In this document: positions 2,142-64,000 of the stretch, piece by piece
Numbering within the stretch: the first letter of the stretch is position 1
Layout of the letters: each line of letters opens with the position of its first letter
Origin: an uncultured archaeon
GTDB taxonomy: Archaea; Nanobdellota; Nanobdellia; Pacearchaeales; GW2011-AR1
DNA length: 64,000 nucleotides
Direction: 5' to 3'
Assembly: GCA_902385635.1 (NCBI GenBank)
Contig: CABMGN010000002.1
Coordinates: 18,092-82,091 of the forward strand
Made by a program: the position numbers and the translations under genes
The notes under the pieces: model-generated
Databases searched by the model: none
The model's input: the letters and a program-made list of their open reading frames with translations, nothing else
Told to the model about the DNA's origin: nothing

Positions 2142-3056
2142 TTAGTTTTCTAAATCTTTTAAATAATTATAAGCTGCTTTAGCTGCAATCGCCCCTTGGC
2201 CGGATGCAACTACAACTTGTTTGAGTTTGTGATGTGTTATGTCTCCTGCTGCAAAAATTCCTTTTACAGAAGTACTCATTTCTTCGTCGACAATTATGTA
2301 CCCTTCTTTGTCTAACTTTACATTTAGCTCTTTCAAAAAATTTGTTAGAGGTGTTGCACCGACTTCTACAAAAATTCCATCAAGTTTTATTTCTTGTTTT
2401 TTCCCTTTCTGACTTATTTCTAGTGATTCTACTTTATCTTTTCCGTTTATTTTTGTAGGAATTGCACTGTAAATCACTTCTGCATTTTTTTTGTCTTCAA
2501 TTCTTTCTGTTGTTAACTCTTCACAGCGTAATTTTTCTCCCCTGTAAATGACATAAACCTTTTTTGCTAGGTCTGTTAGTGCTAGAGCGGAGGTTGCTGC
2601 ACAATCACTTCCCCCAATAACCCCGACTGTTTTTCCTTTGAAAAAAAACGCATCACATGTTACGCAATATGAAACTCCTTTTCCAGTAAGTTCTTGTTCG
2701 CCGGGAATGTTTAGTTTTCTTCTTTCTGTTCCTGTTGCTAGAATTAATGCTTTGCAAGAGAACTCATCTTTTTTTGTTTTTATTATAAATAAATCTTTTT
2801 CCTTTTTTACTGATTCAACATCTTTTGTCATTATTTTTATTCCTTCATACTTTTTTAACTGGTCGTAGAACTGTTTCATTAGCGCTGCTCCGTTTCCAGA
2901 GTATCCGGGCCAGTTTTCTAGAGAGAGAATTGAGTTTGCTGTTCATCCAACGTCCTTGCTTATTACTGCTGTTTTTAATCCATTCCTTATTGAGTACAAG
3001 CCTGCTGTTAGCCCCGCTGGTCCTGCACCGAGAATTATTACATCATAGGATTCCAT
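2142..3056 (-). pseudogene. trxB: thioredoxin-disulfide reductase, single reading frame interrupted by in-frame TGA at codon 38
   Basis: ATG 3056 gives MESYDVIILGAGPAGLTAGLYS...KDVG, then TGA (2945-2943). The same frame continues TANSILSLENWPGYSGNGAALMKQFY into track ORF 2142..2879, which carries the CVTC redox motif and a second GxGxxA/G fold (VGVIGGSDCA). Confidence 0.8.
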
Positions 3057-16910: not shown

Positions 16911-18371
16911 TTACATTCCACACCCGCATCCGCCACCATTTGCACCCATACTACAACTTGAACCTGCTTTTGGTGTTGATGCTTTCACTTGACTCTGAGT
17001 TGCAGTTCCATCCGTAGTAACAATGAAACTTCCCCTTAACATTCCCATTCCACAGCTAAACGGAAGAGTGCCTTCTTTATCTGGAGTAAATTCTATTACA
17101 TTTAATCCTTCTTTTAGAGATTTGTCAATTCCGTACTGCTGTAATATTAGTTCCTGGTTACAACTAGTTAGCTGTTTTACATTTACATTCCAGACTACCG
17201 GTATTCCTTCTTTGAGCACAAATGAATTAGGAGAGTAGCCCGAGGCAGATACATCCATGTTTATTACCTGCTTTCCATCTACTAATACTATACTATCACT
17301 TCCGTTTACTATCTTTACACCAGAATTTGTTATTTGTGATTTTATTGAATCAAAATTGTAATTACTTCCTAAAAGAGTCAAGCCCCTATTTAGCATAACT
17401 AAACCAAGGATTAGAACAATTATTGCGGAAATTTTTAATATTTTCTTTGTTGTTGAGTGACTTATTACTGTAGCTAGACTTCCAAATCCAAGCATTACTG
17501 GAAGAGTTCCTAATCCAAATACAAAAAGGCTTATTGCACCTGTTGCAATATTTCCTGTTCCTGCTGCATAAAGATACATTGCTTGTAAAGGTCCGCAAGC
17601 GATGAATAACCCATTTAACAAACCTGTAACTAGAGGTCTTGAGTACGGTCCTTTGTATTTACTTGAAGTGTTTGTAGAAGCTCGCATTAAGAATTTTGGA
17701 TTAAACTGGAATTTTCTAAAGAACTTTATTCCAAACATACTAAAAGCATAAGTTATCATGAAGACTCCTGCTAAAATTGCAATCCAGCCTCTTAGCCCTG
17801 CTGAAAACGCAAAGAAGCCTCCGATTAAACCGAAAACCCCACCGATAATTGTGTAAGAAATAACCTTACTTCCCCCATAAATTGCGTGTTGTGTGAAACT
17901 CTTATGTCCGTCTAGGGCGTTTTTAGCAGTGTACGAAACTACAAATCCTCCACACATGGAAACGCAGTGAAAGCCTGTTAACAATCCTGCTGCGAACAAA
18001 AGAATTAATGAAGCATTATCTCCAAACTGGGGAATAGAAATTTCTGGAAGAGTAAAACCACTTTTGCTTAGAGTAATATATAGAATAACTAGGAGTAATA
18101 AAACAGCTGCACTTAGAATAAACCAACCAGTCTTAGATTTTTTTGATTCTTCTTTTTTGAGGTTACTTTTCTCATTTAGAGAATACCCCTCTTTTTCTAG
18201 CTCTTTTTTTATTTCTTCTTCTGTTATTTTTGTTTCATCAAAATCTATTTCTGCTGTTTCTTTTGAGTAATTTACAGAAATACTATTAACTTTGTCTTTT
18301 AGTTTTGTTTCTATAAGATGCGCACAAGAGTTACAATGCATTCCTTTTACTAAGTAATTTTTCTTTACCAT
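16911..18371 (-). CDS. HMA domain / DsbD_2-type membrane domain / cupredoxin-like domain fusion with Cys-Gly tail
   Basis: N-terminal GMHCNSC. The TM core has GFHCVSMCGG. The C-terminal domain has SCNQELI...FSCGMGMLRGSFIV (cupredoxin_1-like). The tail is GSSCSMGANGGGCGCGM. Confidence 0.7.
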   Translation of the reverse strand: MVKKNYLVKGMHCNSCAHLIETKLKDKVNSISVNYSKETAEIDFDETKITEEEIKKELEKEGYSLNEKSNLKKEESKKSKTGWFILSAAVLLLLVILYITLSKSGFTLPEISIPQFGDNASLILLFAAGLLTGFHCVSMCGGFVVSYTAKNALDGHKSFTQHAIYGGSKVISYTIIGGVFGLIGGFFAFSAGLRGWIAILAGVFMITYAFSMFGIKFFRKFQFNPKFLMRASTNTSSKYKGPYSRPLVTGLLNGLFIACGPLQAMYLYAAGTGNIATGAISLFVFGLGTLPVMLGFGSLATVISHSTTKKILKISAIIVLILGLVMLNRGLTLLGSNYNFDSIKSQITNSGVKIVNGSDSIVLVDGKQVINMDVSASGYSPNSFVLKEGIPVVWNVNVKQLTSCNQELILQQYGIDKSLKEGLNVIEFTPDKEGTLPFSCGMGMLRGSFIVTTDGTATQSQVKASTPKAGSSCSMGANGGGCGCGM

Positions 18372-62633: not shown

Positions 62634-64000
62634 TTAAAACTCAGTATGAAGGGCTGGGCCTGAAAAGTTCATACCTTTGTCTTTTGAATTGGCTGCAATA
62701 ACATCATCAATTCTAAGAATCATTGTAGCAACTTCTGTCGCAGAAGAAATTGCCTGGGCTTTTATCTTGTAGGGTTCAATTATATGCGCCTTGAACATGT
62801 TTTCAATCTCATTCGTAAACAAATTCAAACCCGCGTTTCTATTTCCGGAATCGTGTTTTGCCTTTAGCGAGGTTAGAACGTCAATAGGATCCAAACCGGC
62901 GTTCTCGGCAAGAGTTACTGGGATGAACTCTAGAGCAGAAGCAAACTAATCAACAGCAAGTTGTTCTCTTCCTTTCAGAGACTGGCCAAAGTATCTAAGC
63001 CTTCTTGCAAGCTCTATTTCTATCGCTCCTCCGCCCGCAACAACCATACCTGTCTTTAGTGAAGATAAAACATCTCCAAGACCATCACGAATGGCTCTTT
63101 CAATTTCATCCATTACATGACTAGACCCACCATGAATCAAGATTGTAAGTGCTTTTGGATTCTGACATCCCCGTATGTAAGTCATTGAATCATTTCCATT
63201 TCCAACCTCTTCAACAATCTGAGCTTCTCCAAGTTCTTTTTGTGTTAGTTCATTGAGATTACTAACTATTTTTCCCCCCGTAGCTTTTGATATCTTTTCT
63301 AAGTCTAATTTCGCAACTCTTCTACAGGCGTATATTCTCTCTTTAGAAAGAAGGTACTGTGCGAATTCATCTATTCCTTTCTGACAGAAGACAACATTTG
63401 CTCCAGAATGTTTTATCTTATTGATCATCTCTCTAATCTGGCGTTCTTCTTGGTCTAAGAAGTTTTGTAATTGTTCGGGGGTTGAGATAGAAATCTTAGT
63501 ATCTATTTCAGGATTTTTTATCTCAAGAGGGAAATCAAGAAGAGCAATTTTAGAAGAATTTACAGAAAGAGGCATATCTGAAGAAACTTTTTCTTTATCT
63601 AAAACAATACCTGAAATTAATTCCGTATCTTCAATCCCATCTCCTTTTGCTTTTTCTATTTTAATATCAGTTAGATCGTACTTTCCTTCTTGTTCTATTT
63701 GCTTTACTGCCTTCACAATTATACCTGCAAACTTTTCTTTAGAAGACTCTGCACACTTCCCAGTCATTGCAGTCATTGCTATCTGTTTTAGTATAGACTC
63801 GTTTTCTGAAGTGATTTTGATTGAAAGTTGTTTAAGGAATTCCTGTGCTTTATCTGCTGCGATTCTATACCCCTTTGTAATGGCTGTCGGATGTATCTTC
63901 TGATCAAGAAGTTTTTCTGCATTTTCCAGAAGTTTTCCTGCAAGCATTACTGCAGAAGTTGTTCCGTCCCCGACTTCAGACTCCTGAGTTCTAGCAATTT
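62634..64000 (-). pseudogene. ths: thermosome (group II chaperonin) subunit, 5' end off window, single frame interrupted by in-frame TAG
   Basis: The upstream part reads EVGDGTTSAVMLAG...VAGGGAIEIELA...GREQLAVD. TAG follows at 62948-62946. The same frame continues [24 protein letters not shown]...ILRIDDVIA. The track splits it into 62946..63947 and 62634..62894. Confidence 0.85.

Follow-up and report, generated by a model that had tools for sequence, protein, structure and literature searches.

Does the TAG that interrupts the thermosome gene of a Pacearchaeota-like DPANN archaeon encode an amino acid, or does it end the protein? The gene reaches the edge of the window, i.e. the whole 64,000-nucleotide stretch analysed, which corresponds to positions 18092–82091 of contig C2. 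The sequence-only reading of the window had placed this TAG beside a TGA in trxB. It had proposed a comparison of orthologs, a search for a second thermosome gene and a genome-wide census of interrupted conserved genes; all three are reported here.

The assembly (G000) is characterized by a size of 594,267 bp in nine contigs, an N50 of ~260 kb, a GC content of 35% and a CheckM completeness of 79%. Genomes of relatives are 0.4–1.4 Mb in size. One single-contig relative of 0.6 Mb scores only 77% "complete", by which measure the 79% score may correspond to a nearly full genome. The closest thermosome proteins are those of MAGs named "Nanoarchaeota archaeon" and "Candidatus Pacearchaeota archaeon". 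Contig C3 (2,506 bp; 49% GC versus 34–38% in every other contig) may be a mis-binned fragment.

The thermosome gene and its internal TAG

The gene is located on the minus strand. Its 5′ part, through codon 431, occupies 62949..64000 and matches PF00118; the start lies outside the window, at window-equivalent position 64241. By sequence and translation, codon 432 is TAG (62946..62948; CTA on the plus strand at 62946–62948); it replaces the Glu codon GAG. The 3′ part (62634..62945) continues in the same frame on the minus strand, with 103 sense codons and the natural TAA (62634–62636). Across the site the minus strand reads ...CTT GCT GTT GAT TAG TTT GCT TCT GCT CTA GAG TTC ATC CCA... The thermosome frame consists of 431 codons, TAG and 103 codons; the TAG is the sole interruption, and no frameshift accompanies it. 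The 3′ part encodes the conserved end of the equatorial domain (...ILRIDDVIA), and all orthologs align colinearly with it as far as the natural C-terminus.

The read-through product matches PF00118 (Cpn60_TCP1) at profile positions 1–489 of 490, with an E-value of 2e-180 and 597.7 bits, above the curated cut-off. Sequence, translation and this profile match confirm the earlier description of a chaperonin frame continuous except for one TAG, with no frameshift. By family, this gene is an ordinary group II chaperonin / thermosome (Cpn60/TCP-1). Its product is 75–86% identical to the thermosomes of relatives, and synteny with a radical-SAM gene is kept. The protein collection records the product in a truncated form of 431 aa. 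A second match to PF00118 is not present in the assembly, where the thermosome gene is single-copy.

The comparison set comprised 60 relatives drawn from the same genus, family and order. The thermosome gene is present in 55 of them; an internal stop is found in 0 of the 60, so that the ortholog comparison shows the stop to be absent from relatives' thermosomes. The column is occupied in relatives by Glu (mostly GAA, found throughout most of the family; also GAG), Gln (CAA or CAG), Ala (GCN) and Lys (AAA). The stop had been read from the sequence as standing for one ordinary residue; this holds, the column being variable (E/Q/A/K) and the ancestral codon GAG. That codon is indicated by the Nanoarchaeota MAG contig JBFYLU010000014.1, in which an identical 29-nt context (12 + 14 flanking bases) carries GAG at the site; the simplest path to the TAG is therefore a single G-to-T transversion of GAG at the first codon position. 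The closest known sequence, a Logan contig of run ERR7850080 (86% aa identity, same radical-SAM neighbour), has GAA. Another assembly of the organism was found neither in the protein collection (best non-self match 86% identity) nor among metagenome contigs, collections that may lack this genome's own records or those of a very near one; an identity look-up of the truncated product likewise gave no record. An exact-pattern scan of genome contigs gave a single match, which belongs to a different MAG and carries GAG.

The gene is not decaying and is otherwise normally conserved. In columns with at least 90% conservation across 19 relatives, 5 private changes are counted here and 1–17 in the relatives. 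Relative to the closest relative, the part upstream of the TAG contains 212 identical, 161 synonymous and 58 nonsynonymous codons, and the downstream part 49, 40 and 14, respectively; the ratio of synonymous to nonsynonymous codons is alike on either side of the stop (161:58 versus 40:14). Equal constraint on both sides implies that the stop is very young relative to the divergence, or absent from the cells, or read through.

Two other MAGs of the family have the thermosome in two abutting pieces, at G036:C1:36603-37956 (profile positions 1–284 and 318–489) and at G017:C13:2-1272 (positions 1–267 and 269–427). In both, the arrangement suggests a frameshift in the assembly.

Interrupted genes across the assembly

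In the census, the ORFs of each genome (at least 60 aa) were aligned to the six frames of the others, and the best-scoring frame was kept for each place. This filter was applied because the raw alignments were full of off-frame and antisense matches. Two nearly whole genomes of the same family, G023 (495 kb) and G002 (527 kb), served as controls. In G000, six clean single internal stops were found in conserved genes (3 TAA, 2 TGA and 1 TAG) over 117–137 thousand aligned residues. By the same procedure G002 and G023 have 0 such stops each; the places listed there are RNA genes, antisense frames and gene boundaries.

The six stops are as follows. In gyrA (C1:11341), TAA stands at the Glu of the catalytic RYTE motif, a residue that is invariant in relatives and adjoins the catalytic Tyr. 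In trxB (minus strand, gene 2142–3056), TGA at window positions 2943–2945 (C2:21036) replaces a near-invariant Gly of the N-terminal GG motif, which is Gly in 22 of 24 aligned relatives and encoded by GGA in the two closest. The thermosome TAG (C2:81039) stands for Glu of relatives. In a T2SS-F/FlaJ-like gene (C2:94026), TAA falls in a column that is variable in relatives. In the gene for a DisA-type diadenylate cyclase (C8:91136), TAA stands for Glu of G002, and in that for a SpoIIM-like membrane protein (C8:254306), TGA stands for Gly of G023 and Glu of G002.

The trxB interruption noticed from the sequence is thus real, and the suspicion that it and the thermosome TAG form a pattern of interrupted core genes, beyond what chance would give, is borne out by the six genes of the census, which involve all three stop codons. 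The paralog search gave no second thermosome. According to the sequence-only reading, a census free of further interrupted genes, if an intact paralog existed as well, would have made this the ordinary decay of a redundant copy; what was found is six interrupted genes and a single thermosome.

Several other candidates were set aside. A TAG at the Hef/XPF locus (C8:174128, plus strand), considered as a seventh nonsense codon, is a normal gene boundary: a single TAG lies between the ORFs, ATG follows directly after the stop, and the arrangement is common to relatives, with separate ORFs in G002 (in different frames) and G023. Stops inside gyrA of relatives were considered and not found within the gene in the three relatives checked by alignment; two stops in the G003 match sit in its N-terminal extension, upstream of the real start. 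Selenocysteine was considered for the trxB TGA and rejected, SelB not being found. Frameshift-like breaks are rare in G000, G002 and G023. The only clearly frameshifted gene found in G000 is a glycosyltransferase-4/MraY-like gene (C8:250277-251264, minus strand), which occupies three successive frames (two frameshifts) versus single ORFs in G002 and G023.

The ancestral codon is inferable from relatives for five of the six stops. Polarised in this way, gyrA and DisA changed from GAA to TAA, trxB and the SpoIIM-like gene from GGA to TGA, and the thermosome gene from GAG to TAG; in every one of the five, G was replaced by T at the first codon position. With the codon usage of the genome, G-to-T accounts for 22.5% of the single-base routes to a stop, giving a probability for five of five of 6e-4 under a uniform spectrum, in a test that was post hoc and made on five events. 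With the lineage's own rates at four-fold sites, which are rough as the sites are near saturation, the probability of G-to-T is 0.26–0.28 and that of five of five 1–2e-3.

The gyrA stop is flanked by two further G:C transversions (ACA GAA GCT to AGA TAA TCT), giving three within 7 nt. The rest of gyrA is normally conserved, and gyrB is intact. The three changes (T164R, E165* and A166S; C1:11335-11346, plus strand; ~1987–1998 of locus L041) affect the first three C-extein codons of an intein insertion site. In a relative, G006, a gyrA intein of 436 aa (C...HN) separates AAMRY from TEAKL, and the breaks in six other relatives fall at this residue too. The triple change may be coincidence, or it may mark a site once cut by a homing endonuclease and repaired mutagenically.

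An excess of G-to-T/C-to-A missense changes is not seen in G000. Counted over all single-step changes, there are 150 in G000 versus 160 and 150 in the control lineages, and radical changes number 18 versus 16 and 22; this codon-by-codon comparison of three genomes is of low power, ~5–10 up to a few tens of extra events being expected on ~150–450. A mutator state brought about by loss of an 8-oxoG repair gene was rejected: a single intact HhH-GPD glycosylase is present in G000, as it is in most relatives. AGOG is not found above the cut-off in any of the 41 genomes searched.

Decoding of the stop codons and rival explanations

The terminators of 524 ORFs of at least 150 aa are TAA (342), TGA (101) and TAG (81). 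The observation that TAG also ends other genes of the window therefore extends to 81 of 524 long ORFs genome-wide. A tRNA with a CUA, UCA or UUA anticodon was not found among the 33 tRNAs predicted by ARAGORN, with and without intron search, in this 79% complete assembly. Several tRNA species, e.g. that for Ala, were likewise not found by ARAGORN in the assembly. A tRNA-Tyr(GTA) (C2:85128-85287, plus strand) is predicted only with introns allowed and has an 85-nt intron after position 37. For PylS, the best match to TIGR02367 reaches 22.7 bits against a cut-off of 178.15, and the SelB profile gives only sub-threshold matches; the sub-threshold matches to both are other synthetases and GTPases. 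The release factor aRF1 is single and intact, with the standard NIKS and YxCxxxF motifs (TAKNIKS and YRCDKEF). Genome-wide, the census against G002 and G023 places no TAG other than that of the thermosome within a conserved alignment. Downstream of it, TAG TTT GCT is no known leaky context. The 99 nt from the stop fold with −17.8 kcal/mol versus a shuffle mean of −19.2 (z +0.46). A start codon is not present for 17 codons after the TAG; the first is TTG, which would drop a conserved segment.

By this evidence TAG means stop in this organism, and there is no new decoding mechanism. The earlier judgement that wholesale reassignment of TAG is unlikely stands: TAG is a normal terminator, and recoding machinery is not found. 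The use of all three stop codons, together with their common G-to-T origin, indicates a mutational or damage process and not decoding. None of the tested defining features of pyrrolysine decoding, codon reassignment or programmed readthrough was found. Dedicated decoding of TAG, as pyrrolysine or as a reassigned amber codon (e.g. TAG = Glu or Gln), has in its favour that the TAG aligns with Glu or Gln of relatives, and the locus resembles the UAG decoding of Methanosarcinales and related archaea in having an in-frame UAG in an otherwise intact archaeal gene. It differs in that pylT and pylS are not found, UAG is a common terminator and is not conserved at the site, and other interrupted genes use TAA and TGA. 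With 81 of 524 long ORFs ending in TAG, a single in-frame TAG in conserved alignments genome-wide, no tRNA-CUA, a PylS match of 22.7 bits against a cut-off of 178 and an unaltered aRF1, the probability of such decoding is close to nil. Functional readthrough would require that leaky termination, or a near-cognate tRNA such as tRNA-Gln(CUG), reads UAG and yields enough full-length thermosome for the alleles to be tolerated or maintained. A tRNA-Gln(CUG) gene exists; the column is variable and tolerant of substitution (E/Q/A/K), so that any inserted residue would probably be accepted; constraint is undiminished over the 103 downstream codons; and the affected genes are single-copy and look essential. 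But the stop is found in 0 of 60 relatives, and the closest known relative (86% aa identity) has GAA. All three stop codons are involved, and near-cognate insertion would hurt at the invariant Glu of GyrA and the near-invariant Gly of TrxR. The context (TAG TTT GCT) is no known leaky one, the 99-nt fold has z = +0.46, the aRF1 motifs are standard, and equal constraint on both sides is explained equally by a very young change. Programmed readthrough at the UAG of tobamoviruses and MuLV, or at the UGA of the coat/A1 gene of phage Qbeta, is alike in that one stop splits one frame; here, in contrast, the stop is unconserved and has neither a known stimulatory context nor a stable downstream structure, and the downstream part is integral to a domain and is not an optional extension. 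Functional readthrough is accordingly judged improbable.

Two further explanations concern the gene itself. Ordinary decay of a copy made redundant by an intact paralog elsewhere would suit the two Cpn60/TCP-1 genes of relatives G002, G015 and G033 and a completeness of 79% by CheckM. Only one PF00118 match exists in the assembly, however, and the interrupted gene is orthologous to the main copy, which is highly conserved (75–86% identity, radical-SAM synteny); it shows no other decay, and five other single-copy genes are interrupted likewise. Such decay is very unlikely. A natural split gene, with two separate polypeptides assembling into the thermosome, is conceivable by analogy with Nanoarchaeum; split genes are known in Nanoarchaeota, and in the present organism a single TAG lies between the separate ORFs of the Hef helicase and the XPF nuclease. 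Yet the thermosome has no start for 17 codons after its TAG, the first TTG would lose a conserved segment, and no relative shows the split, unlike the Hef/XPF boundary, which is common to relatives and has ATG after the stop; a split thermosome is more doubtful still. A different possibility is that all six stops are real on one living chromosome and have been survived through termination leaky enough at all three stop codons to yield sufficient full-length thermosome, gyrase and other products, or through products supplied via the connection to a host. It too is improbable, slightly more so than readthrough of the thermosome TAG considered by itself.

Origin of the stops and meaning for the organism

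The preferred explanation, with a probability of about 0.85, is that the thermosome TAG is an unprogrammed one-base G-to-T substitution (GAG to TAG) in an otherwise intact single-copy gene, resulting from a recent guanine-transversion process. The analysis shows the path of the substitution, its restriction to this assembly, its youth, its place in a set of six and the common G-to-T origin. Five of the five polarisable stops belong to the G>T / C>A class, a pattern that fits oxidised-guanine type changes of very recent date. If the base is present in the cells, translation would stop after residue 431, and the truncated product, lacking the last 103 residues of the equatorial domain, should be inactive.

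An unprogrammed substitution could have come about in two ways, which are about equally likely. In vivo, the stops would be null alleles of recent origin that have become fixed or dominant in a symbiont population that is small and clonal. Cells with defective 8-oxoG repair show such a G-to-T spectrum in vivo. The thermosome gene has the two features of a nascent pseudogene, a single-base path and otherwise normal constraint. Young nonsense pseudogenes and null alleles of reduced, host-dependent prokaryotes are alike in the single-base path, the intact gene, the equal constraint, the private stop and the involvement of several genes. They are unlike in that the putative null alleles here fall in seemingly indispensable genes (the sole thermosome gene, and gyrA at its catalytic motif) and that the stops share a G-to-T type that does not dominate the long-term spectrum of the lineage. 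It is difficult to see how a cell could be viable with six fixed null alleles, the sole thermosome gene and the gyrA catalytic motif included, if all six are real and lie on one chromosome.

In vitro, the stops would reflect a damaged template or an error of the consensus. Oxidised-guanine C>A/G>T changes are well known to arise as artefacts when DNA is handled and libraries are prepared (Costello et al. 2013, Nucleic Acids Res 41:e67, PMC3616734). The present case resembles 8-oxoG artefacts (PMC3616734) in its G-to-T class, in the lack of other gene decay and in the gyrA cluster of three G:C transversions. It is unlike them in that such oxidative library artefacts are normally low-fraction, biased in read orientation and not normally in the consensus (PMC3616734). 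Their presence in a consensus here would need very few template molecules (single-cell or low-input amplification) or very low coverage. The assembly is contiguous and hence was probably deeply covered, so that few consensus substitution errors are expected; this speaks against an artefact. Neither young alleles nor artefact is a comfortable account of the substitution.

In either case, the interruption behaves like a nonsense-disrupted gene of the kind that annotation pipelines flag in many MAGs. Its significance is mainly one of quality control and annotation. The genes for the thermosome, gyrA, trxB, DisA and the two membrane proteins should be flagged as interrupted; they should not be annotated as genes of truncated proteins, nor should they be read as a sign that the genetic code is altered. 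The common G-to-T origin of the stops is a useful diagnostic, which tells a mutational or damage process from recoding without reads.

If the stops are real, they would record a burst of guanine transversions in a DPANN population, in which loss-of-function alleles of normally indispensable genes are at high frequency; this would bear on the strength of selection in tiny symbionts. If all six are in addition tolerated on one living chromosome, nonsense alleles in essential genes could persist far longer in episymbionts than in free-living cells.
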